From an uncultured Lentisphaerales bacterium (GTDB taxonomy: Bacteria; Verrucomicrobiota; Lentisphaeria; JABSQK01; JAJFLO01), in assembly GCA_964615975.1 (NCBI GenBank), contig CAZTTH010000008.1:13814-77813 (forward strand): 64,000 nucleotides of DNA, in the 5' to 3' direction. Both the position numbers and the translations under genes were made by a program. Positions 2,847 through 20,654 of the stretch are shown here, one piece after another. The notes below the pieces were generated by a model. That model made no database searches. It was not told the DNA's origin and saw only the letters and a list, made by a program, of their open reading frames with translations. Each line of letters begins with the position of its first letter. Position 1 is the stretch's first letter.

Positions 2847-3073
2847 CTTCCCCGAATTCCTCGCCCCTGATCGCTGAATTGCCAGTGATCGGCCATGCGC
2901 CCGGATTTGCCAAGGTGATCGAATTTAAGCCCGAATCCAGGTACTCAAAAAGTCCAACCGCGTTACTCAGATGGAGAATCCTTAGGTAAAGTGATTGAAA
3001 ACATCATCAAGCTTGTTAATTTTACCCCCTTCATTGCGAAATTATAATACGACAATCAGGCGATAAAACAGGA

Positions 3074-3640
3074 TTGAATTATCAACTTATGAAACGTCTA
3101 CTATCAGCGCTTAAAGCCTTCTGGCACATCCTTTGCGGTCGCGAAGAGGCTCCCCCTGTCCCGGTTCAACCAGAGTCAGTAAAACCAGCAACTGCTCCGG
3201 CAACACCTGCAGCGGCGATTACCGCCGCATCCAAATCAGCTTCATCGGATAAACATACATTTCAACACGGCGCCATCTATGCCCTGGTGCTGTTGCAACG
3301 GCATGGCCGCCTGATTGATTTTCTTCAGGAAAAGCTGGACGACTACAGCGACGAACAAATCGGCACTGCCGTCCGTCAAATCCATCATGATTGCCAGGTG
3401 GTTTTCACCGAGAATTTTCACCTCCAGCGTATCCTGCCAGAGGAAGAAGGACAGCCCATAAAATTCGAAAAAGCTGTCGACCCTCTGGCAATCAAACTGA
3501 CTGGCGCCATCCCCGCCGCGCCTCCCTACCAGGGGGTGTTGCGTCACAAGGGATGGAAGATTGGTAAAATTCATTTGCCGGAACGGAGCGGGAAAATCGA
3601 TCCCCACATCATTGCCGCCGCGGAAGTGGAAATCGCTTGA
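3074..3640 (+). CDS. DUF2760-like protein
   Basis: GRLIDFLQEKLDDYSDEQIGTAVRQIHHDC and the C-terminal GVLRHKGWK match my recollection of the DUF2760 family, which is usually encoded next to atypical Hsp70 genes. The start is either TTG 3074 or ATG 3089. Confidence 0.65.
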   Translation: MNYQLMKRLLSALKAFWHILCGREEAPPVPVQPESVKPATAPATPAAAITAASKSASSDKHTFQHGAIYALVLLQRHGRLIDFLQEKLDDYSDEQIGTAVRQIHHDCQVVFTENFHLQRILPEEEGQPIKFEKAVDPLAIKLTGAIPAAPPYQGVLRHKGWKIGKIHLPERSGKIDPHIIAAAEVEIA

Positions 3641-3691
3641 ATCGTATCCCGGGATTAAAGGATGATGATGGTGGTATAACTCATAAATAAA

Positions 3692-3790
3692 CCGTTGAAC
3701 TCATTAACCTGCGAACCTTATAACCTATTAACTCTTTAACCTCTTAACACTGAACCCCATTAACCTTTGAACCTTGAACTTTATTAATCC
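3692..3790 (+). repeat. G-poor tract built from reiterated TTAACC / TGAACY words, directly upstream of the Hsp70 gene
   Basis: Read directly: ttgaactcattaacctgcgaaccttataacctattaactctttaacctcttaacactgaaccccattaacctttgaaccttgaactttattaatcc. Confidence 0.6.
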
Positions 3791-3799
3791 CATACCCCC

Positions 3800-5611
3800 A
3801 TGTCACGTTATATCATCGGCATCGATTTAGGCACAACCAATATCGCCATATCCTATCTGGATCTGGAATCCGACACGCCCACAGTGGAACTCTTTTCCGT
3901 CCCCCAACTGGTGGCGCCGGGAGAGATCGATGCGCTTCCACTGCTCCCCTCATTTCTCTATCTCCCGCCCGAGGCGGATGTGGAACGCGGCATTTATGAT
4001 CTGCCGTGGGCAGAGAAACCCCAACATTGTGTTGGCACGTTGGCGCGCAAGAACGGGCCGCTGGCGCCCGGGAAGGTGATTGCTTCGGCCAAATCCTGGC
4101 TGTGCACACCGACCGTCGATCGGCTGGCGCCGATTCTGCCGTGGGGTCAACCTGCGACGGCAGGCAAGATCTCCCCGATTGACGCGACCCGCTATTATCT
4201 CGAGCATCTCAAAGGCGCTTGGAACCAGCATTTTGCCATGGACGATTCCACCCTCGCATTTGAACAGCAAAAAATCATTGTCACCGTGCCCGCCTCCTTC
4301 GATGCCGTGGCCCGGGAATTGACGGTCAAGGCGGCGGAACTGGCAGGATTGACAATTAATTTGCTTGAAGAACCACAGGCGGCGTTTTACGCCTGGCTGC
4401 ATGAGCATGAGAAGAATTGGCGCAAGATGGTGGCGATCGGCAAGCGCATACTGGTCTGCGATATCGGCGGCGGCACCACCGATTTCAGCTTGATTCAGGC
4501 GGTTGACGATAACGGCAGTGTCGGCCTTGAGCGGGTCGCGGTCGGCAATCACATCCTGCTAGGTGGGGACAACCTGGACCTGGCGCTGGCAGTCTATCTT
4601 TCCGAAAAACTCAAACGCGACAAGGGGATCAAGCTCGATCTCAATCAGTTCACCGCCATGACCCATTCCTGCCGAGAAGCCAAGGAGAAGCTGTTCTCGA
4701 GCGCTAAACCGAAACCGCAGAAAATCACCGTGCTGGGACGCGGCAGCAGTGTCATCGGCGGCACGATCACCACGGAACTTACCTTGGAGGAATTGACCAC
4801 GGTGGTGCTGGAGGGATTTTTCCCCCCCTGCGAGCTAAGTGACCAACCGACAACACAAAAGCGACTGGGATTACGCGAATTCGGCTTGAATTACGAGTCC
4901 GATCCGGTGATAACCAAGCATTTGGCGGCGTTTCTTTCCCGGCACTCAGACACGGCGGGGGCCGCCGGCCTGCCAGAGATGATCCTCTTCAACGGCGGCG
5001 TCACCAAAGCCGACAGCATCTGCCAGCGCATCATCGACAACCTGAGAAAATGGCATGGCAACTCTGAAGCCTCGGAAATCACCGTTCTCACCGGCACGGA
5101 TCCCGACACGGCCGTGGCGATCGGCGCCTGCTGGTATGGTCATGTCAGTATTGGCAAAGGCATTCGCATCAAGGCCGGCAGCGCGTTCTCCTATTATGTC
5201 GGGGTGGAATCATCACAACCGGCAATACCCGGATTTCAACCGCCATTGCAGGGACTGTGCGTAGCGCCATTTGGCCTCGAAGAAGGCAGCACTGTCGATA
5301 TTCCCTACACCGGCCTGGGCCTGGTGGTTGGTGAACGCACCGACTTCCAGTTCTTCGCCAGCACTGATCACAAGGAAGATCAATGCGGTACGATCATCGC
5401 CGATGTCGAAGAAGCCGGACTGCACACCCTGCCGGTGCTGACCGCCGAACTGCCGGCGGATGAAGCCACCATCCCTGCCGGCACCCTCCTGCCTATCCGC
5501 CTCAAGACCGTGCTCACCGAAATCGGCACTCTGCAGCTCTGGTGCCTGGAAGAAAACGGCGACCGCCAGTGGCAGCTCGAATACGAACTCCGCGCCCGCG
5601 ACGCGGATTAG
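3800..5611 (+). CDS. Hsp70-family ATPase (non-canonical, HscC/YegD-like) with a divergent C-terminal region
   Basis: IIGIDLGTTNIAIS (phosphate-1), VCDIGGGTTDFSLI (phosphate-2) and LFNGGVTK (adenosine motif). The C-terminal ~200 aa do not resemble the DnaK substrate-binding domain. Confidence 0.85.
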   Translation: MSRYIIGIDLGTTNIAISYLDLESDTPTVELFSVPQLVAPGEIDALPLLPSFLYLPPEADVERGIYDLPWAEKPQHCVGTLARKNGPLAPGKVIASAKSWLCTPTVDRLAPILPWGQPATAGKISPIDATRYYLEHLKGAWNQHFAMDDSTLAFEQQKIIVTVPASFDAVARELTVKAAELAGLTINLLEEPQAAFYAWLHEHEKNWRKMVAIGKRILVCDIGGGTTDFSLIQAVDDNGSVGLERVAVGNHILLGGDNLDLALAVYLSEKLKRDKGIKLDLNQFTAMTHSCREAKEKLFSSAKPKPQKITVLGRGSSVIGGTITTELTLEELTTVVLEGFFPPCELSDQPTTQKRLGLREFGLNYESDPVITKHLAAFLSRHSDTAGAAGLPEMILFNGGVTKADSICQRIIDNLRKWHGNSEASEITVLTGTDPDTAVAIGACWYGHVSIGKGIRIKAGSAFSYYVGVESSQPAIPGFQPPLQGLCVAPFGLEEGSTVDIPYTGLGLVVGERTDFQFFASTDHKEDQCGTIIADVEEAGLHTLPVLTAELPADEATIPAGTLLPIRLKTVLTEIGTLQLWCLEENGDRQWQLEYELRARDAD

Positions 5612-5789
5612 AGTGGATGCAGTTCACCGTTTGGAACAACGCTATCTGGATCACCCAGGATGAAATTTTAATCCATCCAAAAATTTGCTTGGAAAATGAT
5701 AATTTTGCCGTCACCATCTGACTACCATAACAGATATACTGCACATGAATGATGGCTATTCATCTTCCCGTCAGGTTGGGCAAGGCAGC

Positions 5790-7862
5790 TTAAGCTCGTA
5801 AGTCATCCAGGAATTCTGAGGCTGGTTCAATGCCTGTGACCAGTAAATGATCCCTTGCCCGTGTACAAGCGACATAAAGCAAGTGACGTTCAGTGTCGTA
5901 GACCTCTTGCAAATCGGCATCGTCACCGACTGTTTCAATACGTTCCTGTAAGGGGATAATCTCGTCATCACAGGATATCACGGCCACGGCGCGGAATTCA
6001 AGCCCCTTGGCCAGGTGCATGGTGCAGATCGATACATGACCACTGCTCGTCTCGACATGGTCATCGAGGATATTGAATGGCAAACCCGACTCCTTGACTG
6101 CATCTTGAGCTCGTTCCAGTTGCCCTGGTGAACGCACGAAGACGCCGAATTCATGGGGTAGGAGACCGGCTTTCGTGAGCTCGGCAATCCATGTACCAAC
6201 AGAACTTATTTCGTCATTTTCACTCTTGAACACGCGAATGTCGGGTAATGGACCATTGAAGATCGAAATTGTATCGCTCCGATCTTCTCGATTGCCGTCC
6301 ACATCAGTAACTTCCGGACCAAGCAGACGATCAGCTTGCTGGCGGATTTGATGGGATGTGCGATAATTGATTCGCAGCGTGCGGGAACGACCGCGGATAT
6401 CAACACCGAGTGATTTCCAGGAGAAGGGTTGTTGGAAAATACGCTGACCAAGATCACCGGCAAAGAATAAAGCGTTGGAGCGCTCACCACCAAGCACGGC
6501 AAGGAAGCGGAGTTGTGAAACACTGAGATCCTGTGCCTCGTCAACAACTACAAAATCGAAGGGTAGCTTTTTGCTTTCCACCAATGTGGACGACAAGGCA
6601 GTGAAAATCCCCGCATGAGTGGATAACTTCCGCTCTTTCAATCCACTGCTGACCTGCTCAAAGATAGACCAGAGTACCACTCGTCGCTTTTCGGGCAGCC
6701 GGGTTTTGCGGCCAAGGCGGGCTACATCGCGGTAAGACTCCCATGTTTCCAATTGCCACGCATCGACGACTTGTTCCCATTCGGTAACCAGGAAATGCAG
6801 ACTGAACTTGTGATCTCCCACCACTTTCGCCGCGACATTGAGCAATTCCCGCACGATATCACGAGTGGCCAGGTTCACCTTGCCACATTGTGATTTAAAG
6901 AGTCGGAGACCGATGGCATTCAGGGAGTAAACTTCAATGCGTTCGACAAGACGCGGTTCGTTGCCGACCAATCGTTTTAGCTTGGTACGAAGCGCATTTG
7001 CCAGCGTGTCGGAAAAGGTTGTGAGCAGGATGCGGGCATCGGGATAGGCGCGGGCCAGATACACTGCCCGATGCAACGCCACAATCGTCTTTCCGGTTCC
7101 AGCCGATCCTGAAACACGGGATGGTCCATTTTGGTCGCGTTCCACCCATTGACGCTGTTCGGGATGGAGAAAAACAGTCCACTTCTCCCAGGGGAAATCG
7201 AGAGCACATTGAAGCTCTTCGATATTGTTCATCACCCGGAAGCGGCGTTGCGCATCGGGGTGATCAAACGGACTTGCAATCGGCATGGCCGGTTGAATCA
7301 CTCGCGGTTTGCCACCGGTGGCAAGTTCCAGGAGCGCTTCAGCCGCTTCCCCGGGCAGACGTTCCGCTAACAATAACAGGCTGTCTTCATTAACCTGGCG
7401 CACATCATTCAACCATTCTGCCGGCACGCCATAGCCAAGCAGTTCTTCATCGGAATTGGCGGTAAACAGGGGTGGTTTCGGTAGCGCCGGCAATTCCTGT
7501 TGCACATACACTGGTACATAGACCTCCTTCACCGTCTCGCGAATTTCCACGAGCTGAGCCGCCCCCGTCTTGGGATGCGTTTCCAGTTTCCGGCGTTGCG
7601 CCCAATTATAGGCTTTATCGTGGTGATCGACATAACAGAGCATCAAACTGGTACCGGTTTTGTGAACGATGAGCCGAATATCACTGGTTGCTCGAATCGA
7701 CCAGAAGTTGGCATCTTTGGCGCCCTCAATACGATGGCATTGCATCCCGGGATTGAGGGGATTCATCTGCAGGTCAAATGCCGTTGTCTTGACCGCTTTC
7801 TGCTCATCGCCGGTCAGGCGTGCAAGGCTATCGGTGAAGGTGGCGGCAATGCGGAAGTTCAT
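5790..7862 (-). CDS. SF1 UvrD/Rep-like helicase with an N-terminal RelE/ParE-like domain
   Basis: Helicase motifs: GSAGTGKT (I), VVVDEAQDLS (II), FFAGDLGQRIF (III), INYRTS (IV), TMHLAKGLEFRAV (V) and LLYVACTRARDHL (VI). The GAGGA Shine-Dalgarno sits about 7 nt upstream of the ATG. The first ~95 aa (FWSIRATSDIRLIVHKTG..LMLCYVDHHDKAY) look toxin-fold-like. Confidence 0.85.
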   Translation of the reverse strand: MNFRIAATFTDSLARLTGDEQKAVKTTAFDLQMNPLNPGMQCHRIEGAKDANFWSIRATSDIRLIVHKTGTSLMLCYVDHHDKAYNWAQRRKLETHPKTGAAQLVEIRETVKEVYVPVYVQQELPALPKPPLFTANSDEELLGYGVPAEWLNDVRQVNEDSLLLLAERLPGEAAEALLELATGGKPRVIQPAMPIASPFDHPDAQRRFRVMNNIEELQCALDFPWEKWTVFLHPEQRQWVERDQNGPSRVSGSAGTGKTIVALHRAVYLARAYPDARILLTTFSDTLANALRTKLKRLVGNEPRLVERIEVYSLNAIGLRLFKSQCGKVNLATRDIVRELLNVAAKVVGDHKFSLHFLVTEWEQVVDAWQLETWESYRDVARLGRKTRLPEKRRVVLWSIFEQVSSGLKERKLSTHAGIFTALSSTLVESKKLPFDFVVVDEAQDLSVSQLRFLAVLGGERSNALFFAGDLGQRIFQQPFSWKSLGVDIRGRSRTLRINYRTSHQIRQQADRLLGPEVTDVDGNREDRSDTISIFNGPLPDIRVFKSENDEISSVGTWIAELTKAGLLPHEFGVFVRSPGQLERAQDAVKESGLPFNILDDHVETSSGHVSICTMHLAKGLEFRAVAVISCDDEIIPLQERIETVGDDADLQEVYDTERHLLYVACTRARDHLLVTGIEPASEFLDDLRA

Positions 7863-10242: not shown

Positions 10243-11898
10243 CTAAATAAGATGCCATTTCGGGTATTTTCGCGATCCTTCATTCCGGATTAAGTCCTCC
10301 CTTGCCATCGACTGAATCAGGTTAGTTACTTTGTTACGTTTCCGATCATCATCCAGGACATCAGATAATTTGCTGAATAAGAGCTTATCGATATCCTGGC
10401 GTGTGGCATGGCCATACTTCCGAATGAATTCCAGAATCATCTGCTTGTAATGTGCATCGTCGAAAGCGCGGTTTTTTATATACTGTGCTTTATCTCCAGT
10501 GGCCGAGGCGATATGCGCTGCCACGTATAGATTGGGATAACGGCCTTCAATAAGTTTATCATTTCGTAGCATATTCGCTTCATCTTTGGATACTGCTTGT
10601 CGTTTCTGAATTCGGTCTAATAAAATCACTTTGCTCAGCGGCAAATCTTTCTGATCCATAAGCATGACGGTGTAATTAGGGTCAATCACCTGGCCATGTA
10701 TGGTTACGATTACTTTACCCGGTGTCGATAGATTGAAATCGGGTAACGGATAAAATCGCTTGCGTTGCTCCTGGAACATCCGTCGAATGCCATATCCCAT
10801 GGTATCGATCATATTCACATTCACCATGGCGTCTGCGAGAAAACGATTACGATAGCGCTCTGGGGTCTTTTCCCGCAACGTATAATCCTCAAGCCCACCT
10901 TCGAAAAAATCTCCCGCACTCTCAAATACCAAACGATCAGGTCGCTCCGCGACAATTATCCGCGCTTGCTGGCGGTAATCCTGATGGGCAATCGCATTAT
11001 GCATTGCTTCCAGTACCACCCATTTTTCATACTTGGGGACTTCAAATGGAACCAGTTGACCGGGGACATCAAGCTTTTGCATGGTATTACGAATCCGGGC
11101 ATAACATTCACTGGTAGTCAGGAGAAATGGCGGACTGAAGTGTTCGTATGCCTGTTCCGTTCCTTCCAGTTTCCAGGTGATTTGCGCTACTGCCGGTTCC
11201 AGATGATAAGCCGCTTCTTCTCGCCCCAGCAACAGCAGACATGCACGGGTAATCGCGCCGTTCTTTGTCAATTTGGCTTTATCCAGCAATGTCGTATTCG
11301 ACCATGAATCAATCTCTCCGGCAAAGTACTTGTTTCGATTTTTATCACGAAAGTTCCGCCGAGCCGCCACGATTGCCTCCGAATTCAAGTCGTCAATAGT
11401 GGCTTGTGAACAGATTTCTGCTGACCAATCATCAAGCACTGCTTGTGACCGAATCTGCTCCAACTCATGAAGACTTAAGGCGACCAGCGACTCCCCATCG
11501 CGACCATACCAATGCCCTTTGAAGGAGACCGGCAACCCGGGCGGCGCCGCGGGAACCTGAAACATAATGACCCGGCCAGCGGCATGATACGCAATGTGAA
11601 TATCGATAAAACTCATGCGATTGGTTTGATTGGCAATTTCATGTTTAAGGCTATTCAAATAGTCTGCTTTGTCGCGATAACGACTCCCACAAATGCTCCG
11701 ATCATCATTGGCGATGCCGAACACCAGCCAGCCACAGGGTTGATGCTTGAGGTTTGCTTCATTCGCCAACGCTGAAAAATATTGCCCCAGTTTATCGAAG
11801 GAGAAATCATTTTTCGCTTCTTTGAACTCCACCCATTCCGTTTCATGGGGAAGCTGTCGTAGTTCATCAAGTTTATCAAGTAATTGCTGATTCGTCAT
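10243..11898 (-). CDS. AlbA_2/Schlafen-like (divergent AAA) DNA/RNA-binding protein with a RecG-C-terminal-like ATPase/wHTH region
   Basis: ETEWVEFKEAKNDFSFDKLGQYFSALANE is the hallmark N-terminus of the AlbA_2 family. The start overlaps the mod stop by 4 nt. Confidence 0.75.
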   Translation of the reverse strand: MTNQQLLDKLDELRQLPHETEWVEFKEAKNDFSFDKLGQYFSALANEANLKHQPCGWLVFGIANDDRSICGSRYRDKADYLNSLKHEIANQTNRMSFIDIHIAYHAAGRVIMFQVPAAPPGLPVSFKGHWYGRDGESLVALSLHELEQIRSQAVLDDWSAEICSQATIDDLNSEAIVAARRNFRDKNRNKYFAGEIDSWSNTTLLDKAKLTKNGAITRACLLLLGREEAAYHLEPAVAQITWKLEGTEQAYEHFSPPFLLTTSECYARIRNTMQKLDVPGQLVPFEVPKYEKWVVLEAMHNAIAHQDYRQQARIIVAERPDRLVFESAGDFFEGGLEDYTLREKTPERYRNRFLADAMVNVNMIDTMGYGIRRMFQEQRKRFYPLPDFNLSTPGKVIVTIHGQVIDPNYTVMLMDQKDLPLSKVILLDRIQKRQAVSKDEANMLRNDKLIEGRYPNLYVAAHIASATGDKAQYIKNRAFDDAHYKQMILEFIRKYGHATRQDIDKLLFSKLSDVLDDDRKRNKVTNLIQSMAREDLIRNEGSRKYPKWHLI

Positions 11899-14800
11899 GG
11901 GTTCACCCGGAATACCTTCATTACCTCGTCTCCAAGATGGTTGATTACTTTGATGGCGATGCGGCCGGACTTCGGCTTCTCGAATGGGCGGGAGGTGTCA
12001 CTGTTCAGAGTGGCCCAGGCGTCGGCGTTGATCTCGGCTTTGAGAGTGGTCTTGAGGGCGCTGTAGGGATCGTTGGCGCCAAGGAAATATGCATGGCGGA
12101 CAAAGAAGCTTTCTTCATTGTAATCGGTGTCGATGAACCAGCAGGCAATGCCATCGGTATTGCAGCTTTCTACTTCACCGGTTTGGGGTTTGAAGACATC
12201 CACTCCATTTACAGTGACCTGGAAATAGTGGCGAGTGGTCAGGGGAGAGTGGATAGCGATTTGATCAATGCGTTTAGCATTTTGTTGATCTTGGCACAAT
12301 TGTTCAATAAGTTTTCGCAGTCCTTCCTGGAAAGAAGTTCCAGCCTTTCGGACAAGATCAGAAAGGTTTCCAACTCCGCCAGCGATCCCCGCGCAATGCC
12401 AAGCGATTGTAGAAACTCCCCCGTGCTCCTGCGGGCCTGCCCTTCGGCGATGTTTGCCGGGACGGAGGTCACTGCCCGTCGCATTTGTGATGTAATCCCA
12501 TATCTCTCGGCGGCAGGAAAGCTGCGCGTAATCGCGTAGGTCTGCACCGCCAAGTCGATTGATTTCTGCCAGACTATTAACTCCCGATATGAGCTTATAG
12601 ATTTCATAAGGTGCTATTCTCCTTTCTGAACTATCCACTAACCACTCTTCACTTGCCACTTCAATATCAGGTTCCCCGAATATCACAAACAAGTTGCCTT
12701 TGCCGGTGTTCTTGAGATCTTCAGCCATGTGGAGGTCGGCGTTCATGCGGGCTTTGAGCACTGGGATGCGGCCCAGCTTCTTGAATTCGGTGGTGTGCGC
12801 TTCGTAGTTAAAAGCGCAGACGATCAAGACATCAAACCCGGCATCGCCGGCTTCGCGGGCGGCGGCGACGAGATCGGCGCGCTGGACGGTGCCGAACTCG
12901 GGGCCGATGAAGATTCCAGCACGGATTTCCGTGCCGGAATCAGTGGATAGTGAGGAGTGGTTAATGGCATATTTTTCTTGTTGATCACCCTTCACTAACC
13001 ACTCACCACTTGCTTCAAACCGCCCTTCGGCGCAGACCAATTCGCCCGGCCAGGGAACCAACGAGGTGAAAGTGATCCGATCCTCCTTGTGCGCCTGCTG
13101 CACCCCTGCGGTCTTGAGGTTTTCCAGAACCATCTGGGGGAATGACTGCTTTCCATATTCGACACCGCCTTCCAACATGGTGTCGATCAATTCGTCGTCC
13201 TCGTCGACCCCGAGCACACGATGAGGTGAAAGACTCTCCACGGTGAAGGGACCGGCGACGCGGACTGTCTTCTTGTCCTCATAGGGTTTGTCGTAGAGAT
13301 ATTCGACATCAGCCTTGGCGGAAATCGACGCATCAATTTCCTTTTGGCGGGCAATTCGTTTGTGCCACCAGTCGGAATGCAGCTTCAGAATGTGGGACAG
13401 ACATTCTTGTCTGTCTTTAGGGGGGAGTTTGGCGGTGGAAGAAGCAGACAGGAATGTCTGCTCCACACTGGCAGATTCGCGCGGAATTTCCCATTCTTCC
13501 CATTTCATATTAAGCGCGGTATTGAGCTCTGCTCGAAGAAATTCCAGCTCTGGTTGGAATTTCTCCCAGATAACATCGATCTCGGCGTTGTTGGCGATGG
13601 ACTTGAGCGTGATGTGTGGCACACGTTCATAGACGAAGCCGTGGCGGATGTTCCCCTGCACCGGTTGCGAACTTGGGGCGGTGCGAGTGACTTCGGCTTC
13701 CTTGAGCTGACCTTCAATGGAATCGACTAGTAGGTAAAAGGGATACCGTGCGCCCATGATGCGAGCACGGGCCAATGCCAGCGCCACGCGTGAGGTGTCG
13801 ATCGTGATCCAACGGCGCCCCCATTGCTCGGCGACGGTGGCGGTGGTACCAGAACCGCAGGTCGGGTCAAGTACGAGGTCACCGGGATCGGTGGCCAAGA
13901 GAAGGCATCGTTTTATTGCTTCTGTAGCAGTCTGAACGACAAAAATCTTTGGATCTGCACGGCTTTGAATGCCCCCGATATCATCCCAGACGTTTGAAAG
14001 TGTATGAACGGGAAAATCTTCAATGTAGCGAACGTAATTTAATATCTGCTTGCTCGGAGAAATACGATTTGCCAATTCGAGTCTGGCCATGCCATTGGGT
14101 GTTGTCTTCCAACTGCCTTGGTGTTCGCAGTTTCGTAGTGTCACTAACACTACTGGGTTTGCTTCTGACGTTGTCTTGTCGAGACGGAAAATTCGTGACG
14201 CGGGCGGGAAGGCATCAGGGAATTTTTCACTCGCTTGTTTTAGTGTAATTCTTGTTCCATCTGGTAGTTCGACTCCGTTGTATTTTGTGCCGCCATGTTC
14301 TCCTGGTCTCTTCTCGGCGTACAGATGCCGTGCTTTCGCATGGGTCTTATGCTTTGCGAACCAGAGAATGAAATCGCATTTGTTATTCACGAAGTCTTGA
14401 ACAAGACCTCCTGTCTTTACGAATGTGATTTGGCTGACACAATTCTCTTCTCCGAAGACCTCATCCATCACTGCCCGGACACGGTGAACATTTTCATCGC
14501 CGATCTGGACGAAGATGGAGCCGGAATCTGTTAACAAGTCACGGGCCACTGTCAACCGGTCCCGCAGGTAGGTAAGGTAGCTATGGATGCCTTCGCGCCA
14601 GGTATCGCGAAAGGCTTTAACTTGTTCGGGTTCACGTGTAATATGATCAACCTTGCCGTCCTTCACATCACGGCTGGTGGTGGACCACTGGAAATTGCTA
14701 TTGAACTTGATGCCATAAGGCGGATCGATATAGATGCACTGCACCTTGCCGCGCAACCCCTCGCGCTCGGCCAGGCTGGCCATGACCTGGAGGGAGTCGC

Positions 14801-15230
14801 CGAGGATCATGCGGTTGGACCAATTCTGATCGTGTTGATAGAACTCAGTCTTGTCCACGCCCTGAGGAATGCCATTAAAATCCGCGAATAAGTCTGGCTG
14901 CCACGATTCGGTGGAGTGATTAGTGGATAGTGAAGAGTGGCGCAGTAGATCGTCAATCAATACCTTGGGGTGAATTTTCTCCTGAATGTATAACGGCGGG
15001 GCATGGACAACGAGATCGCTCCAGTCCTGTTCATCCTTGCCGCGCCAAACGAGTTGGGGATCGAGATCGGTGTTGCGGGGATAACGCACCTGCTTGGGGT
15101 TCTGCTGCTCCTTCTCCAGCACCGACTGGTATTCGGCGGTGGGAATGTTCTTGCGCGTCGCGTCGTCGTGCTTGAGTGTTTCGACTGTCTTGGTTTTATT
15201 GTTTGCATTGGCCATGTTATTAAATCCCAA
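11895..15230 (-). CDS. mod: type III-like N6-adenine DNA methyltransferase (Mod), 1111 codons including several in-frame insertions
   Basis: IYIDPPYGIKFNSNFQ (motif IV, DPPY), LVLDPTCGSGTTATVAEQWGRRWITID (motif I), and the conserved C-terminus CWFIDTDYNEESFFVRHAYFLG...IAIKVINHLGDEVMKVF. Confidence 0.85.
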   Translation of the reverse strand: MGFNNMANANNKTKTVETLKHDDATRKNIPTAEYQSVLEKEQQNPKQVRYPRNTDLDPQLVWRGKDEQDWSDLVVHAPPLYIQEKIHPKVLIDDLLRHSSLSTNHSTESWQPDLFADFNGIPQGVDKTEFYQHDQNWSNRMILGDSLQVMASLAEREGLRGKVQCIYIDPPYGIKFNSNFQWSTTSRDVKDGKVDHITREPEQVKAFRDTWREGIHSYLTYLRDRLTVARDLLTDSGSIFVQIGDENVHRVRAVMDEVFGEENCVSQITFVKTGGLVQDFVNNKCDFILWFAKHKTHAKARHLYAEKRPGEHGGTKYNGVELPDGTRITLKQASEKFPDAFPPASRIFRLDKTTSEANPVVLVTLRNCEHQGSWKTTPNGMARLELANRISPSKQILNYVRYIEDFPVHTLSNVWDDIGGIQSRADPKIFVVQTATEAIKRCLLLATDPGDLVLDPTCGSGTTATVAEQWGRRWITIDTSRVALALARARIMGARYPFYLLVDSIEGQLKEAEVTRTAPSSQPVQGNIRHGFVYERVPHITLKSIANNAEIDVIWEKFQPELEFLRAELNTALNMKWEEWEIPRESASVEQTFLSASSTAKLPPKDRQECLSHILKLHSDWWHKRIARQKEIDASISAKADVEYLYDKPYEDKKTVRVAGPFTVESLSPHRVLGVDEDDELIDTMLEGGVEYGKQSFPQMVLENLKTAGVQQAHKEDRITFTSLVPWPGELVCAEGRFEASGEWLVKGDQQEKYAINHSSLSTDSGTEIRAGIFIGPEFGTVQRADLVAAAREAGDAGFDVLIVCAFNYEAHTTEFKKLGRIPVLKARMNADLHMAEDLKNTGKGNLFVIFGEPDIEVASEEWLVDSSERRIAPYEIYKLISGVNSLAEINRLGGADLRDYAQLSCRREIWDYITNATGSDLRPGKHRRRAGPQEHGGVSTIAWHCAGIAGGVGNLSDLVRKAGTSFQEGLRKLIEQLCQDQQNAKRIDQIAIHSPLTTRHYFQVTVNGVDVFKPQTGEVESCNTDGIACWFIDTDYNEESFFVRHAYFLGANDPYSALKTTLKAEINADAWATLNSDTSRPFEKPKSGRIAIKVINHLGDEVMKVFRVNP
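12227..12660 (-). mobile_element. IVS-like cassette inside mod: a four-helix-bundle gene bounded by 30-nt imperfect inverted repeats
   Basis: The arms at 12227-12256 (agtggcgagtggtcaggggagagtggatag) and 12631-12660 (ctatccactaaccactcttcacttgccact) are reverse-complementary at 23/30 positions by hand count. They enclose the ORF 12239-12607. Confidence 0.55.
12239..12607 (-). CDS. four-helix-bundle protein (23S rRNA intervening-sequence protein / Avd-like family), nested in mod in a different frame
   Basis: YRELIVWQKSIDLAVQTYAITRSFPAAERYGITSQMRRAVTSVPANIAEGQAR...GSLAELETFLILS is the classic family signature. It has its own AAGGAG Shine-Dalgarno about 11 nt upstream of the ATG. Confidence 0.8.
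   Translation of the reverse strand: MKSISSYRELIVWQKSIDLAVQTYAITRSFPAAERYGITSQMRRAVTSVPANIAEGQARRSTGEFLQSLGIARGSLAELETFLILSERLELLSRKDCENLLNNCAKINKMLNALIKSLSTLP
12942..13013. repeat. 'empty' hairpin made of the same AGTGG/CCACT arm family, in frame within mod
   Basis: agtggatagtgaggagtggttaatgg, a ~19-nt loop, then ttcactaaccactcaccacttgc. The right arm is near-identical to 12636-12657. Confidence 0.6.
13396..13461. repeat. pair of short perfect palindromic hairpins inside mod coding sequence
   Basis: GACAGACA-ttct-TGTCTGTC (13396-13415) and GCAGACA-ggaa-TGTCTGC (13444-13461). Same hairpin family as 15410-15429. Confidence 0.7.
14911..14940. repeat. solo arm of the AGTGG repeat family within the 5' part of mod
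   Basis: gtggagtgattagtggatagtgaagagtgg. The stretch agtggatagtgaagagtgg matches 12942-12960 at 18/19. Confidence 0.55.
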
Positions 15231-15331
15231 AATCAGGTTGTTGTCTACATTTATTCGGCCCGCTAATCACGCAAAACACACGAATGTTCAGTTCTCAGTT
15301 AAGAATGAAGGCTGATTTGCTTGGATTGAAT

Positions 15332-15365
15332 ATTCGTGTCGTTCGTCTGATTCGTGGTTAAATTT
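15332..15365 (+). repeat. three 9-nt direct repeats (ATTCGTGTC GTTCGTCTG ATTCGTGGT) followed by TAAATTT
   Basis: Read directly. It is related to 26662-26718, with the same ATYCGTGT start and GATYCGTGGTTAAATTT end. Confidence 0.6.
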
Positions 15366-15376
15366 GAACGGTGGTG

Positions 15377-15436
15377 AACGGAGGGCGGGTTTTCCAACCC
15401 GCCAAACAAGGCGGACAGGAATGTCCGCCCTCCGTT
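15377..15436. repeat. REP-like double-hairpin element with an alternative 12-bp outer stem
   Basis: GGCGGGTT-ttcc-AACCCGCC (15384-15403) and GGCGGACA-ggaa-TGTCCGCC (15410-15429). The outer stem AACGGAGGGCGG (15377-15388) pairs perfectly with CCGCCCTCCGTT (15425-15436). Confidence 0.7.
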
Positions 15437-15473
15437 ATCCTCAAAATCGATACCTGAGTTGTTACAATATATT

Positions 15474-15707
15474 TTATATTTTGCCATCGCGTTTCAATTC
15501 GATAATCATGTCCTCAAACGAAACTAATGGTTCATCCGCGCGCATATCGAAGGCGGCTAAATCCTCTGTATCCTCCGCCAGCGACAATATTACCGCTTCA
15601 TTAACGAGGTCGGACATCGATCTTGATGTATCAATGGACTTTTGCTGTAATGCTTTATGAATATCCGGTTTTAGGTAAATAGTGGAACGTTTTGATAATA
15701 CTGTCAT
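15474..15707 (-). CDS. ribbon-helix-helix (CopG/ParD-like) antitoxin, now orphaned
   Basis: STIYLKPDIHKALQQKSIDTSRSMSDLVNEAVILSLAEDTEDLAAFDMRADEP is typical of RHH antitoxins that pair with RelE/ParE toxins. Confidence 0.65.
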   Translation of the reverse strand: MTVLSKRSTIYLKPDIHKALQQKSIDTSRSMSDLVNEAVILSLAEDTEDLAAFDMRADEPLVSFEDMIIELKRDGKI

Positions 15708-15777: not shown

Positions 15778-16350
15778 TCAAACTGCCAATCGGTCAGTGA
15801 CTACATCATCGATCATCTTGTTGAACTCGGCTTCAACCTTTTTAGTAAAATCCGCCTCGATCTGATAAACCATGCGTTCGCTCGCCCGGATTTCGCAGAC
15901 CTCTTCAAGCAGTTCCTCGAAGTATCGCCGGTCGAAACGAGTGCCGTGTTTAAAGCGGTCGGAATCGATAGCGAAACCTTTGAGGATGTAGTCCTTTAAC
16001 CGATCGGTAGCCCAGGTACGAAATTGGGTCGCTCGCACGCTTTTGACGCGATACCCAACAGCTATGATCGCTTCGAGGCTGTAAAGCTTCGTACGATACT
16101 GCTTGCCATCAGCGGCAGTTACCGAGGATTCCTCGGTAACTGCTGATTCGATTAGTTCTTGATCGGCGAAAATATTCTTTAAATGCAAGGAGATATTGTC
16201 GGTGGAACACTCATAAAGTTCGGCTATGAGTTTCTGGGTGAGCCAAACATTTTCGTTCTCGAAGCGAACTTCAACGCGAGCCCGCCCATCTTCACTTGCG
16301 AAGATGGTGATATTGTCGATGCGTATAGGTTGCGAATTTTTAGACATCAT
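15778..16350 (-). CDS. RhuM-family protein, truncated and fused to a Res-type C-terminal tail
   Basis: The RhuM core is LYSLEAIIAVGYRVKSVRATQFRTWATDRLKDYILKGFAIDSDRF...EIRASERMVYQ. The last ~25 aa (IEADFTKKVEAEFNKMI) are homologous to the Res C-terminus (IEADFSKKVKFEFDRML). Confidence 0.75.
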   Translation of the reverse strand: MMSKNSQPIRIDNITIFASEDGRARVEVRFENENVWLTQKLIAELYECSTDNISLHLKNIFADQELIESAVTEESSVTAADGKQYRTKLYSLEAIIAVGYRVKSVRATQFRTWATDRLKDYILKGFAIDSDRFKHGTRFDRRYFEELLEEVCEIRASERMVYQIEADFTKKVEAEFNKMIDDVVTDRLAV

Positions 16351-17435
16351 TAACTTCCTTCCTGCATGGATTCTCTGGTCAAAATAGCATTCAAGGCGGT
16401 GTTAATGTAGTAATTAGTCCGCCCTATTTTTTGTTTTTTAAGGAAGCCGCCGCCGGTCAACGCATCGAGATATTTGGTGGCGGTGAGGCGCGACACCTTC
16501 AGATCACGTTCGACGAATTCGATCTTGGTATAGGGGTGGGTAAACAGGTTATTGATCAGATCCTGACTGTAAAACTTGTACTCCGCGCGAATACGGTGCT
16601 TCGCATCCATCAACGCCGCATTAATGGCATGGATGGTTTCGATGGCATCACCGGCGGTTGATTCAATGGCGGTAAGCAGGTAAAGCACCCACTCTTCCCA
16701 TGCATCGTTTTCGCGAACACTCTGAAGCAGTCGATAATAATCCGGTTTGGTGCGGACGATGTGGCGGCTGAGATATAGCACCGGGATATCGAGCAGACCT
16801 TCCTTCACCAAGTAAAGCACATTAACGATGCGGCCGGTGCGGCCATTGCCATCATAGAACGGGTGGATACTTTCAAACTGGTGATGGATCAACGCCATTT
16901 TAATGAGCGGGTCAGCGGCAAATAAATCACGATCATTGATGAAACGCTCAAGATCGCGCATGAGCGCGATAATGGTATCTGGATCTTGCGGCGGCATATA
17001 GATCGCCTGACCAGAGCCATCTTTCAACACAGTCCCTGGCAGTTTGCGGAAACCGGCGTTGTTTTGCTCCAGCTCTACCTGAATCTGAATGATATGGTTG
17101 ATGGTAAGCAGACCACTTTGTTGCACTAGATCGAATCCAACCCGTAAAGCCTGGCGATACCGTAGTACCTCCTTGGCGGCGCCATGGTGCAAGTTCTCGG
17201 GAAAAAGGTCATCTTTATATAATTCGTCATGAGTGGTCACGATGTTTTCTATGGCCGAACTATCCTTGGCCTCCTGTATTCCCAGAGTGTTGATGAGTAT
17301 CCCCTGGTTAGGAATGGAGGCGGCGACTCCCTTGAGTTCAGCTAGTTTACGACTTGTTAAAGCCAATTTTTTAAGGATAACGGGAGTATCGAATCTTATC
17401 GACGGCAAACGATCTAATGGCAGAATGGTGGTCAT
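16350..17435 (-). CDS. Fic-family protein (AMPylase/adenylyltransferase type) with a C-terminal wHTH
   Basis: Fic motif HPFYDGNGRTGR. The stop overlaps the rhuM start. Confidence 0.9.
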   Translation of the reverse strand: MTTILPLDRLPSIRFDTPVILKKLALTSRKLAELKGVAASIPNQGILINTLGIQEAKDSSAIENIVTTHDELYKDDLFPENLHHGAAKEVLRYRQALRVGFDLVQQSGLLTINHIIQIQVELEQNNAGFRKLPGTVLKDGSGQAIYMPPQDPDTIIALMRDLERFINDRDLFAADPLIKMALIHHQFESIHPFYDGNGRTGRIVNVLYLVKEGLLDIPVLYLSRHIVRTKPDYYRLLQSVRENDAWEEWVLYLLTAIESTAGDAIETIHAINAALMDAKHRIRAEYKFYSQDLINNLFTHPYTKIEFVERDLKVSRLTATKYLDALTGGGFLKKQKIGRTNYYINTALNAILTRESMQEGS

Positions 17436-17537: not shown

Positions 17538-20500
17538 TCATAATGATGCCGGCCGCGGGTGTATTATCATGCTTAACATCCGATCAAATTCAAATTTAAC
17601 CTTCTTGGAAAAATCTGCCTCAATCTGATAAACATCATTGAACTCGGCGAATGCCCAGCGGCCAAACGTGCCCAGGTTGTTCACACCGGGTACCCAGTAG
17701 GTTTCGATGGCGGACTTCTTATCCTTGGCATCCTCGCGGCGGTAGCCTTTGATCTCAACAATCAGATGGAGGAGATCGTCGGGCCCGTGGCCGTCATCCA
17801 CGCGCACGATAAAGTCCGGCAGATACTTGCGGATTTCAGAACCATGGCGATAGGGCACTTCGAGGCCGAGGTTGTGATTTTTGACGTAGGCATGAACTTT
17901 AGGGTGCGACTCGGCGACCCGGCAGAACTCGGCTTCCCAATCGCTGTCGAGGATAACCCAGTTGATATGGCAACTCTTGGAACTGGTTTCCCAGCGGTCA
18001 CGGCGCGAGGTGTTAAAGCGAACATGGGCCGTGGAGCCCGTGGGATTATAAGGGTCGAGCAGGGCTTTGATGGGACGTTCTCCGACGAAGGCGCGGGTAA
18101 TACCGGCAGTAATGCGTTCGCAAGCTATATCAGCGAGCATTTTGTATTTTAACTGCGCGGGGTAAGTTCTACCCTTGCAAATCAAGCAAGTGTCCAGCCA
18201 ATGCTTGGCAATCCGTTTCAATTGTCCGAAAAGATTAAAATGGGCAGACTGCCCCGGGTCACGCCAATGATTCAGAACGAGATGGGAAGTCAATTCAAAA
18301 AGAATTTGTGATGGACGCACCTCTCTAGTATGATCGAGAGTCAGGTCGACAGTTTGTCCAATTATTCCAGACTGACGAGTCGTTGTTGCACCAACCAACT
18401 CCGGGGTAAGCTCAAGAATCGAGTCTTGGTCAAATTGGGCAATTAGACGATCATCGGGCAATTCAACACGATAGCCTGCCACACGGGGGAAAATTATCTC
18501 CAGATGATTTCTCTCTGGGCTAATGGCTTTCACTCGGACGGTTTGCGGGGGTGGTTGTGGGGGAGAGATTACGGGCTGGGCTGTAAAGTTAAAGGGAATG
18601 CCAATAATATCAGCATATTCTACATTGAACAATCCTTTATCCGATCCTTCCTCATTTAGCCAATAGGACCATCGCCTCAGAGCTCGGCCGATGACCTGTT
18701 CACATAGTAGCTGAGTACCAAAAGCCCGAACTCCAAGTACATGAGTGACAGTGTTGGCATCCCAGCCCTCGGTAAGCATGGAAACTGAAACAACACAACG
18801 AATGTCACTACCAAGTGTCCCAGGTTTGCCCACAGTGTTCATAACTTCCCGCAATAGGGTTGTATCGTCGAAATCTTTTCCTTCCCTCAATTGCTCCGCC
18901 AAGGGGCCGCCTCTTTCCATAACTTGACTCTTGAACTGAGTAATTTCAGGGGCTGCAACTGCTCGGAAGTTATCATCGAAACCTTCCCCCGATTCCAATT
19001 GAGCGCTGTCGATGAGCAATGTGTATGGGCGAGTTAATGGGTTGCCGTGCTCGTCATGATTTCGGAATAGTTCGAGACGTCCACCCACAGGCTTGAAGCT
19101 TCCATCCTCCTGCAGTTGATCAAAGCCAGAAATGAAATCGTAGATTAGCTTCGAAACGGCCGTGTTCTGACAAACAATGATAAAGCATGGCGGAACCGGG
19201 ATCCCTCTTTCTCGCCAACACTGAAAAGTTTTGGAATAGTGGCCATAGAGTGCTTCGAGTGCGGTTTGAAGTAAGGGGGGCAGGCTCAAAGGGTCAAGTC
19301 TAGACTGACCGCGCTTTTTCTTTGGCATTTTCGAGCGCACGTTCTCCCACAGATTTCTGAATAACGGAACGTCAGCTCCGGGTATGTTGTCCGAGACTGG
19401 AACCCGAGGCAATTTCACGATTCCGCACTCAATTGCGTCCATGAGTGAAAAATCGCTCATCGTCCAGTGGAACATCGTACCTTCTCGATATCCAGAGCCA
19501 CGGAGAAAGAAAGGTGTTGCAGAAAGATCGATTACACGAAGAAGACCGATTTTGCGATTCACTTTCTCAAGTCCCGAAATCCAAAGTCGTGCCGCCTTGT
19601 TGTTCTCCGCAGCTTCTTCCCTGGCTTCTCTCAGTGCGTTGCCAGAAAGAGGATTACCTTCTGAATCAGTGAACTGACTGTCGTCTGCAGGTTTCTCACG
19701 ATAACAGTGATGTGCCTCGTCATTTATAACAAGGATATTTTTCATGCCCATGAGTTCGGGCATGACACGTTGAATCATCTGGCCTTCGGTCTCAAGTGTT
19801 AGCGGATCATCACCGGTTCGGCCCTTGAGGAGTTGACGGTTGCCTTTTGAAAGATTGGTGCGCTCCCGGAGTTTGAAGGCATGGTAGTTGGTGATGACAA
19901 TCTTGGCCTTCTTGAGATCGTCGAGCATATCATGCGGCACGAGTTCGCGGCTAGCATAATAGCTGTCAGGATCGTGGGGTTGGAGGACGCGCAGACGATC
20001 CTTGATGGTCAGACCGGGGGCGACGATGAGGAACCCACGGCTGAAATATTTGCTGCCAGGGCGGCGGACAGCATTGATGGTTTGCCAGGCGATAAGCATG
20101 GCCATAACGGTGGTCTTGCCAGCGCCGGTGGCCAGTTTCAGGGCGAAGCGCATGAGTTCAGGATTGGCATCCTGATTAGCGCTTGCCAGGTAATCGAGCA
20201 ATTGTTTACTGCTCTTATAAAAGGGAGCGACTTCGGTCAGCCAGATGGCGGTTTCGACCGCTTCAATCTGACAGAAGAACGGGCGGAAGTCGCCGAATTT
20301 ATGGTGACGCCAGTGCTGCAGCAGGCGGGTTGTCTCGGGGCTAACCTGCCATTGGCCGGGATTGGACAACGCCCGCCAGGCATTCACATGGCGGCGAACT
20401 TCATTGATGTTGGACGTAGGATCGTATTGCTGATCCTTGGTCGAAAGCCCCTGGCCTTCGTCGAATACGAATTCTTCCTGAGCGGCGGATTGCTTCCGCT

Positions 20501-20654
20501 TCTTCGGTTTGGGAATAGGAGTGATAAACTCAGCCCGGCGACGACTCAGCATGATCCGCTGTGTCGGTTGTCCAGATTTATCCAATTCCCAGTGTCGACT
20601 TGGACACTCATAAGGCGAGTTGAGGATGGGGTGGTCGAAGAAGGGATTGGACAT
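17538..20654 (-). CDS. res: type III-like restriction endonuclease / SF2 helicase subunit (Res)
   Basis: KLATGAGKTTVMAMLIAW (Walker A / motif I), LVINDEAHHCY (DEAH, motif II), and MLTEGWDANTVTHVLGVRAFGTQLLCEQVIGRALRR (motifs V-VI). Confidence 0.9.
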   Translation of the reverse strand: MSNPFFDHPILNSPYECPSRHWELDKSGQPTQRIMLSRRRAEFITPIPKPKKRKQSAAQEEFVFDEGQGLSTKDQQYDPTSNINEVRRHVNAWRALSNPGQWQVSPETTRLLQHWRHHKFGDFRPFFCQIEAVETAIWLTEVAPFYKSSKQLLDYLASANQDANPELMRFALKLATGAGKTTVMAMLIAWQTINAVRRPGSKYFSRGFLIVAPGLTIKDRLRVLQPHDPDSYYASRELVPHDMLDDLKKAKIVITNYHAFKLRERTNLSKGNRQLLKGRTGDDPLTLETEGQMIQRVMPELMGMKNILVINDEAHHCYREKPADDSQFTDSEGNPLSGNALREAREEAAENNKAARLWISGLEKVNRKIGLLRVIDLSATPFFLRGSGYREGTMFHWTMSDFSLMDAIECGIVKLPRVPVSDNIPGADVPLFRNLWENVRSKMPKKKRGQSRLDPLSLPPLLQTALEALYGHYSKTFQCWRERGIPVPPCFIIVCQNTAVSKLIYDFISGFDQLQEDGSFKPVGGRLELFRNHDEHGNPLTRPYTLLIDSAQLESGEGFDDNFRAVAAPEITQFKSQVMERGGPLAEQLREGKDFDDTTLLREVMNTVGKPGTLGSDIRCVVSVSMLTEGWDANTVTHVLGVRAFGTQLLCEQVIGRALRRWSYWLNEEGSDKGLFNVEYADIIGIPFNFTAQPVISPPQPPPQTVRVKAISPERNHLEIIFPRVAGYRVELPDDRLIAQFDQDSILELTPELVGATTTRQSGIIGQTVDLTLDHTREVRPSQILFELTSHLVLNHWRDPGQSAHFNLFGQLKRIAKHWLDTCLICKGRTYPAQLKYKMLADIACERITAGITRAFVGERPIKALLDPYNPTGSTAHVRFNTSRRDRWETSSKSCHINWVILDSDWEAEFCRVAESHPKVHAYVKNHNLGLEVPYRHGSEIRKYLPDFIVRVDDGHGPDDLLHLIVEIKGYRREDAKDKKSAIETYWVPGVNNLGTFGRWAFAEFNDVYQIEADFSKKVKFEFDRMLSMIIHPRPASL

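Follow-up and report, generated by a model that had tools for sequence, protein, structure and literature searches.

A four-helix-bundle gene cassette nested in a Type III-like DNA methyltransferase gene whose reading frame stays open across it

A small hairpin-bounded gene cassette lies inside a DNA methyltransferase gene of an uncultured Lentisphaerales bacterium (GenBank assembly GCA_964615975.1, contig CAZTTH010000008.1, positions 13,814 to 77,813). The window is this whole stretch of 64,000 nucleotides, and coordinates are counted from its first letter. The host gene, mod, belongs to a restriction-modification (R-M) locus, and the cassette carries a gene for a four-helix-bundle (4HB) protein of the family known from the intervening sequences (IVSs) of 23S rRNA. 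All of the cassette features, as well as mod and the 4HB gene, are on the minus strand and are arranged as follows.

11895..15230, minus strand: mod, Type III-like N6/N4 DNA methyltransferase gene, 1111 codons, TTG start at 15230; PF01555, E=2e-33
12227..12660, minus strand: whole cassette, 434 nt, made up of the left arm, a Shine-Dalgarno (SD)-like tract, the 4HB open reading frame (ORF), and the right arm
12631..12660, minus strand: 5' (left) arm, tandem degenerate heptamers AGTGGCA AGTGAAG AGTGGTT AGTGGAT AG
12619..12624, minus strand: AAGGAG Shine-Dalgarno-like tract, 11 nt from the 4HB ATG
12239..12607, minus strand: 4HB gene, 122 aa, ATG start, in the +1 frame of mod and wholly inside mod
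12227..12256, minus strand: 3' (right) arm, complementary to the left arm at 23/30 positions
12225..12659, minus strand: read-through (overprinted) segment of Mod, residues 858-1002, 145 aa

This layout agrees with an initial annotation of the DNA, which had placed a complete 4HB ORF with an AAGGAG Shine-Dalgarno of its own and 30-nt imperfect inverted repeats within the 1111-codon mod ORF, on the same strand and in another frame, and which had described Mod as reading through the element without a stop. Each of these points was borne out. In Mod, the motifs DPPYGI (residues 169-174) and DPTCGSGTT (residues 455-463) are conserved, and together with the methyltransferase domain and a helicase-bearing Res partner they mark the protein as a probable Type III Mod. 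The database copy of the window Mod (P0001) is a 100% match with a start five codons further downstream.

The profile matches identify the 122-aa ORF as a full-length PF05635/TIGR02436 four-helix-bundle (23S-rRNA-IVS) protein. It covers positions 1-106 of the 106 in PF05635 (E=8e-39, 132.6 bits versus a cutoff of 33.8) and matches TIGR02436 (E=2e-39, 134 bits versus 24) and NF008911 (146.6 bits versus 137). Among solved members in the Protein Data Bank (PDB), 2gsc (XCC0516) and 2rld were found with E-values of 8.5e-23 and 1.2e-10, respectively, as sequence matches only; 2gsc contains five chains, and pentamers are formed by members of the family. The protein was rejected as an Avd of a diversity-generating retroelement, since it reached 32.1 bits versus 80 for NF033474 (E=1e-7) and 30.7 versus 40 for PF22296 (E=5e-7). 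Avd represents a distantly related fold or family, while the context in the window is an R-M operon, and no reverse transcriptase was present among the neighbors scanned (Res, Fic, RhuM, AlbA_2/HATPase_c_4, and the UvrD-like helicase), template and variable repeats not having been searched for. A second 4HB gene in the window was also rejected; the sole other match, a weak tblastn hit at 33783-33956 (E 0.002) in a YbbR/CdaR-like gene, was taken as chance. The exact 4HB protein of the window is absent from a 15-billion-protein collection in which the overlapping Mod (P0001) is present; gene callers evidently miss one of two overlapping genes.

With a Mod codon beginning at 12608 and the 4HB ATG at 12607, the 4HB gene occupies the +1 frame relative to Mod, and Mod occupies the -1 frame relative to the cassette. 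The two genes overlap by 369 nt on the same strand, and throughout the overlap the wobble base of the 4HB gene is the first base of the Mod codons. The left arm is read in the Mod frame as ..ASEEWLVDS and has a lag-7 identity of 0.47, compared with approximately 0.27 at other lags. The right arm codes for the final 6 residues and the stop of the 4HB protein (..LSTLP, stop) and for ..IHSPLTTRHY of Mod; the predicted junction peptides of the insert in the Mod frame include ..PDIEVASEEWLVDSSER.. and ..IHSPLTTR... The arms align with a score of 28.5 versus 15.3 ± 2.3 in 2000 shuffles (P ~0.001). Among the nested copies found in relatives, the 4HB ATG is kept in 44/46, and an SD-like purine tract is present at -22..-5 in 41/46. 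No sigma-70-like promoter was found in a scan inside mod, and no start codon or SD precedes the C-terminal part of Mod (ModC) in the window. An Rfam search at E<=1 over 11500-15500 gave no match and no ribozyme, and in a Pfam search Mod matched PF01555 only, with no Hint or homing-endonuclease (intein) domain.

The boundaries of the element were set, as the initial annotation had advised, by alignment with Mod homologues that lack it. At the cassette site of 120 close Mod homologues, 73 have a 149-163-aa segment, 46 have an 11-16-aa loop, and 1 has a 94-aa remnant. In the window, GEPDIE is followed by VASEEWLVDS...HSPLTTRHYF and then by QVTVNGVDVF, and the empty allele reads GEPDIE-LLREQDGRL-RVKVKGVDVF. 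In empty-site Mods, the position of the cassette is taken by a β-turn of 11-16 aa, and beyond the cassette the conserved C terminus of Mod resumes, also as first described. Judged from these alignments, the cassette is an insertion that replaces the tip of a Mod β-hairpin. The occurrence of the same ~145 residues in homologous Mod proteins had been named in the initial annotation as a sign that there is no insertion; they do occur in 73 of the 120, but the insertion stands, because the same nested 4HB gene is found there and 46 relatives lack the segment.

The distribution was also surveyed from the 4HB side with one genome per species, each of the best 80 4HB loci being tested with the Mod flanks of the window. 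Forty-nine of these 80 closest loci sit between homologues of the N-terminal part of Mod (ModN) and of ModC, in at least 13 phyla: Pseudomonadota, Cyanobacteriota, Chloroflexota, Planctomycetota, Nitrospirota, Acidobacteriota, Bacteroidota, Bacillota, Desulfobacterota, Verrucomicrobiota, Gemmatimonadota, Poribacteria, Latescibacterota, and Binatota. Among the host Mods is a deeply divergent subfamily that shares only 30-40% identity with the window Mod in the C-terminal region.

The window has zero Mod-frame stops across the cassette. When the 4HB gene was resampled synonymously with the codon usage of the window, 6.2 stops were expected and the probability of none was 4e-4; when its own synonymous codons were shuffled, the probability was 0.019. 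The naive chance of 0.3% first given falls between these estimates. The Mod frame, which begins 1 nt upstream of the 4HB ATG, is stop-free across the 4HB gene in 50 nested copies (the window and 49 others), including AT-rich ones (36-43% GC); the nominal exception, L052, is a frameshifted copy whose scored interval extends beyond the cassette. In contrast, 25 intact free-standing relatives have 1-16 stops in the same frame (mean ~4), and one of them (L013), whose protein is 74% identical to the window 4HB, has 3. The third frame contains ~8-10 stops in each copy and is closed everywhere, typically from ATGA onward. Of the alternative frames, none but the -1 frame was open in any copy; its stops (NNT-AAN, NNT-AGN, and NNT-GAN) are erasable by silent 4HB changes, and it is the only alternative frame that can stay open because changes at the 4HB wobble position remove its stops. 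The length variants of the insert are all multiples of 3. Of the 50 nested copies, 46 retain an intact 4HB ORF, and the Mod frame is still open in two copies with premature 4HB stops (L004 and L063). In a further Mod homologue (P0061), a 64-aa in-frame deletion leaves a 94-aa remnant in which the 4HB gene is destroyed and Mod is still in frame.

Substitutions were classed by their effect in each frame after Wei & Zhang (PMC4316641), using phylogenetically independent pairs. In the 4HB frame, dNN/dSN (omega) is 0.18 (95% confidence interval 0.15-0.21), which indicates strong purifying selection on the 4HB protein. In the Mod frame, dNN/dNS is 0.73 (0.63-0.84) for 23 independent nested pairs, whereas the same pseudo-frame of the free-standing controls gives 1.40 (1.25-1.68) for 9 pairs (Mann-Whitney p=2e-4). 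This difference holds with stop-creating paths excluded; therefore, the read-through peptide is moderately constrained beyond the avoidance of stops. Copies of the 4HB gene nested in hosts other than Mod have a dNN/dNS of 1.59, from 2 pairs only. Across relatives of the mod/4HB pair, then, both frames are open and both are under purifying selection, which supports the co-selection that the initial annotation had listed among its explanations. Another of its suggestions, that Mod tolerates a junk insertion, survives in part: about half of the insert is predicted to be of low confidence or disordered, while the segment as a whole is measurably constrained.

The read-through segment has no Pfam family, and Foldseek found no similar fold in the PDB (best E 0.2, TM ~0.15), as would be expected of a sequence that arose by overprinting. 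Among 1.84 billion representative proteins, the peptide has 57 matches. Of the 20 larger ones, which were scanned with Pfam, most of those bearing a domain are Mod fragments, two are MmeI-family proteins, and one carries DUF559 (P0270). In an AlphaFold2 (AF2) model of the whole Mod, with a predicted local distance difference test (pLDDT) score of 65.6, β-strands at 855-865 and 998-1014 flank the insert, and residues 861-900 are predicted at a pLDDT of 86-88 with short helices. Models of the insert only had a predicted template modeling (pTM) score of 0.68 and were unstable over five models. The read-through peptides of a second sequence lineage of the cassette, lineage B (L082), are G/S/R-rich and of low complexity.

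Nearly all members of the 4HB subfamily, whether nested or free-standing, are flanked by arms of degenerate tandem heptamers, with a lag-7 identity of 0.41-0.59 compared with ~0.27 at other lags; such arms were counted in 40/50 copies nested in Mod, 5/5 nested in other hosts, and 13/26 free-standing copies. The heptamer is AGTGGTT/AACCACT in most Mod copies, AGTTTTT/AAAAACT at the same Mod site in a Brocadia/Thermodesulfovibrio group, and GGTCCAG, GTGGGCA, CGGTAGT, ACACCTC, or others elsewhere. Despite the differing heptamers, the upstream and downstream arms stay complementary in each lineage. In the 29 alignable copies of lineage A, 76% of the cells pair, compared with 28-50% in slid registers; the covariation is modest (0.089 versus 0.073 in shuffles, a value reached in 2/500), and the stem has a conserved 3x3 internal loop. 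The arm mismatches show no sense-strand bias, G.T and A.C numbering 42 and 36 in nested copies and 14 and 13 in free-standing ones. RNase III processing, a role in recombination at the DNA level, and a generative origin are all possible for the stem. The arms of L001-L080 often have the form AGTNNNN (left) and NNNNACT (right) and seem to resemble the short tandemly repeated repetitive (STRR) sequences of cyanobacteria, which are heptamer repeats. The number of repeats in an arm may also recall the pentameric state of family members. For HIP1 (GCGATCGC), taken as a sign of cyanobacterial origin, zero copies were found.

Two further sites of the same heptamer family lie within mod.

12942..13013, minus strand: solo hairpin without a gene, arms AGTGGTGAGTGGTTAGTGAAGGGTGATCAA / CATTAACCACTCCTCACTATCCACT, 16-nt loop; in frame in mod as SGEWLVKGDQQEKYAINHSSLST
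14915..14932, minus strand: heptamer tract of the right-arm type (CACTATCCACTAATCACT), read HSSLSTNHS, within the N-terminal variable loop of mod; no left arm left

The site of the solo hairpin is occupied in some Mod homologues and empty in others, and both arms are present at the site equivalent to 14915-14932 in P0004 and P0005 (SSEWIVAS...HQSLSTV). All three heptamer sites of the 64-kb window are inside mod, with no copies elsewhere in it.

The cassette family has other hosts. In Planctomycetes, 4HB cassettes are nested likewise, in the -1 relation, in R-M enzymes of the MmeI family (L054, L070, and L073); a copy in Chloroploca (L075) was counted as nested tentatively, having no N-terminal MmeI domain before the cassette. 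Another is nested, also in the -1 frame, in a Planctomyces Ser/Thr kinase (L064), where the Pkinase domain is split after profile position 132, and one more lies in the -1 frame of the gene for the DUF559 protein P0270. Free-standing cassettes (L079, L080, L031, L062/L068, and L067) are located in operon spacers, mostly co-oriented with the flanking genes: between pgk and pyk, between gyrB-like and gyrA-like genes, between imuB and dnaE2, between amidohydrolase and aldo-keto reductase genes, and after ftsY. A specific association of the family with R-M systems was rejected on account of these copies between housekeeping genes. The lack of a sigma-70-like promoter inside mod and the co-orientation of most spacer copies are the reasons why the 4HB cassettes appear to ride on host transcripts.

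Mods with and without the insert are interspersed among the homologues. The closest relatives of the window in the C-terminal flank (P0065/L081; ~90% identical) have an empty site. Locus L082 (JGI 3300044948, Mod 3001-6222), with flanks 90-91% identical to those of the window and the same junctions, carries a lineage-B 4HB that is 53% identical to that of the window, as confirmed by translation and BLASTP. The window 4HB is 74% (L013) and 66% identical to free-standing copies and 61% identical to copies in distant Mods, and it is thus closer to these than to the lineage-B copy. The identity of the 4HB proteins follows that of the Mod flanks only moderately, with a Spearman coefficient of 0.59, compared with 0.80 for flank versus flank. 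A single ancient insertion with purely vertical descent was rejected because the phylogenies of 4HB and Mod disagree. Since close Mods differ (empty, lineage A as in the window, lineage B, or remnant), the cassette is exchanged, lost, and regained at a fixed site; it turns over among mod alleles, perhaps by homologous recombination between them or by a dedicated mechanism.

The remaining genes of the R-M locus and its surroundings in the window are listed below.

17538..20654, minus strand: res, Type III restriction subunit and partner of mod, with ResIII helicase and endonuclease domains (PF04851 and PF19778)
16350-17435, minus strand: Fic, between res and mod
15778-16350, minus strand: RhuM, between res and mod
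15474-15707, minus strand: 77-aa ORF, between res and mod
10243-11898, minus strand: Schlafen-AlbA_2/HATPase_c_4 gene after mod; its ATG overlaps the mod stop (ATGA, 11895-11898)
5790-7862, minus strand: UvrD-like helicase gene downstream of Res-Mod (in L081, 8917-10995; in L082, 7932-9222)

The Fic, RhuM, and 77-aa genes are cargo that splits the R-M operon between res and mod. The order Res...Mod...UvrD is common to the window, L081, and L082, and the UvrD-like helicase may be a third component of this Res-Mod system. An alanyl-tRNA synthetase ORF at 22371-24143 on the minus strand encodes 590 aa only (catalytic domain and SAD), which looks short for such an enzyme.

We consider it probable that the element is an unspliced IVS-type 4HB cassette in a hairpin of Mod, that Mod is translated through it, and that the 4HB protein is made from an internal start. 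The hairpin-bounded cassette would sit in the tip of a surface β-hairpin near the C terminus of Mod and would stay in, ribosomes on mod reading across it in its -1 frame. Mod would thereby gain ~145 residues and would presumably retain its activity. The predicted β-strands encoded by the arms may form a stalk that prolongs the native hairpin, and the overprinted middle is predicted to be partly helical and partly disordered. The 4HB protein would be translated from this mRNA too, ribosomes initiating internally at the +1-frame ATG of the 4HB gene. The R-M system would be selected for a Mod frame that is open and in register and the cassette for an intact 4HB gene, and gain, loss, and exchange among mod alleles would make the cassette a semi-selfish passenger on an R-M system that itself moves horizontally.

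Several points weigh against this interpretation. The AF2 models are mediocre, the five insert-only models having pLDDT scores of 41-70, and the low confidence of residues 921-955 makes the picture of a stalk plus a domain a weak one. The distance of 11 nt from the SD to the ATG of the window 4HB gene is long. The constraint on the Mod frame relies on few controls (9 pairs), whose composition is somewhat different, and the loci were collected via 4HB similarity, so that copies with a decayed 4HB gene are underrepresented. Seven of the nested loci have the upstream portion of mod in a different frame, which could reflect frameshifts, split genes, or assembly errors. The full-length Mod, the 4HB protein, and the Mod activity are likewise deductions from sequence. 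Finally, the conserved, covarying stem is given no role, and if it were an RNase III site, cleavage would destroy part of the mod mRNA.

An explanation that we regard as unlikely takes up the RNA-level processing suggested in the initial annotation: pairing of the arms within the mod mRNA would create a stem for RNase III, whose cleavage would free a 4HB mRNA and leave the mod mRNA down-regulated or fragmented, read-through being secondary or confined to uncut transcripts; it could coexist with translation through the cassette. The size and layout match the 23S IVSs of Coxiella and Leptospira with their RNase III-cut 28-bp terminal stem (PMC4990558), and the presence of arms in 40/50 Mod, 5/5 other-host, and 13/26 free-standing copies, their complementarity across lineages, the 76% pairing, and the covariation (0.089 versus 0.073) all favor such processing, which would be harmless for co-oriented free-standing copies in operon spacers. 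However, the unbiased mismatches (42 versus 36 and 14 versus 13) fit a DNA-level role or a generative origin equally well. A cut without ligation would lose the conserved C terminus of Mod, yet the frame into ModC is strongly selected, and an obligatory cut would leave the conserved open frame pointless; moreover, ModC has no preceding start codon or SD, and Rfam gave no match. That the read-through segment has been turned into a functional domain of Mod, with a role for instance in regulation or in binding a partner, and is now retained on its own account is, in our opinion, more doubtful still. Such a domain would account for the Mod-frame dNN/dNS at about half of the control value, for the well-predicted helices of residues 861-900 (pLDDT 86-88), and for the survival of the segment where the 4HB gene is broken (L004, L063, and P0061), but not for the 46/120 close Mods without it, including the nearest relatives of the window in the C-terminal flank. 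The G/S/R-rich, low-complexity lineage-B peptides, the lack of a Pfam family or fold match, and the unconstrained copies in other hosts (dNN/dNS 1.59, 2 pairs) also argue against it.

The opposite idea, a neutral passenger in a permissive loop with selection only against stops and frameshifts and with no role for the 4HB protein in R-M, is possible, though it seems to us on the unlikely side. The location at a β-hairpin tip, the predicted disorder of half of the insert, and its patchy presence among close Mods are what such a passenger would show, and the free-standing cassettes beside unrelated housekeeping genes indicate that the 4HB protein is not bound to R-M; however, the constraint on the Mod frame persists without stop-creating paths, and a 4HB omega of 0.18 with the ORF intact in 46/50 nested copies means that the nested gene is not junk. 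That mod is a decaying pseudogene whose frame is open by chance, or that the arrangement is an artifact of assembly or annotation, can in effect be discarded: the 7 related loci with the upstream mod part in another frame would suit it, but for the window by itself an absence of stops has a probability of 4e-4 to 0.02, the same open frame occurs in ~50 independent assemblies, and the catalytic motifs and the Res gene are intact.

The closest known counterpart of the cassette is the IVS of 23S rRNA with an S23p/four-helix-bundle ORF, which has been described in Leptospira and Coxiella (Ralph & McClelland 1993; Warrier et al. 2016, PMC4990558); the Coxiella IVS has 428 nt and a 28-bp stem cut by RNase III (PMC4990558). 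Both kinds of element encode a PF05635 protein in ~430 nt, with a terminal stem of ~28-30 bp around an ORF of ~120 codons, both occupy the tip of a hairpin of their host and lie in the sense direction of its transcript, and both are distributed sporadically, suggesting horizontal transfer. In contrast to the rRNA elements, the host in the window is a PF01555 protein gene, the arms are tandem heptamers, and the element, instead of being excised, is apparently read by ribosomes in a second frame, with both frames selected. In the literature searched in full text, in which subscription journals are poorly covered, we found no 4HB/S23p gene nested in a methyltransferase gene and no such cassette family outside rRNA.

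Other ways of living inside a gene can be compared with that of the cassette. Among same-strand nested or overprinted bacterial and phage genes are comS inside srfA and Rz1 inside Rz, in which, as here, a small gene lies out of frame within a larger one on the same strand and mRNA. Unlike in these pairs, the inner 4HB gene is the older one, horizontally acquired and with free-standing homologues, the outer frame being overprinted onto it; the 369-nt overlap is conserved across phyla, and the gene inside belongs to a cassette that is bounded by a hairpin and can be exchanged. The Rickettsia palindromic elements (RPEs), reportedly described by Ogata and colleagues in 2000, are said to be in-frame hairpins within ORFs. 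Like these and elements resembling miniature inverted-repeat transposable elements, the cassette is palindromic DNA in frame in a permissive protein loop and would be translated, a description that the solo hairpin at 12942-13013 also fits; unlike them, it bears a conserved ORF in another frame, and the likeness to RPE and STRR is one of description. With inteins and group I/II introns it would share a fixed site in a conserved gene, a patchy presence among close alleles, and a host that is not inactivated. It differs from them in having no Hint or homing-endonuclease domain and no ribozyme, in that nothing suggests its removal at the RNA or protein level, and in that its persistence comes from translatability.

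To our knowledge, bacteria have very few long, fully nested same-strand gene pairs in which selection acts on both products, and such cases are much debated. The cassette in mod looks like one of these rare cases, a maintained gene within a gene in bacteria, and the mod/4HB pair occurs in ~50 species of at least 13 phyla, with the free-standing 4HB copies as a built-in control. The direction of overprinting is unusual, in that the host frame runs over a horizontally acquired gene, which results in ~145 new residues in a conserved enzyme. Because gene callers give Mod or 4HB and rarely both, nested genes of this kind are systematically under-annotated. The finding also ties the 30-year-old puzzle of the rRNA IVSs and S23p to a wider set of hairpin-bounded cassettes in operon spacers and ORFs, and it makes the mobility of the cassette and the function of the 4HB protein testable in R-M genes, where methylation is an easy read-out. 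As a tentative generalization, which as a whole is improbable rather than probable, 4HB cassettes might be mobile, gene-carrying "translatable intervening sequences" that colonize loop or hairpin spots in rRNA helices, spacers, and ORFs, their heptamer arms serving as insertion or exchange sites for the putatively pentameric 4HB protein or a recruited host factor; they would persist in ORFs by virtue of a stop-free second frame, with new protein segments as a by-product. If this is true, such cassettes would represent a third strategy, beside introns and inteins, for living inside an essential or selected gene.

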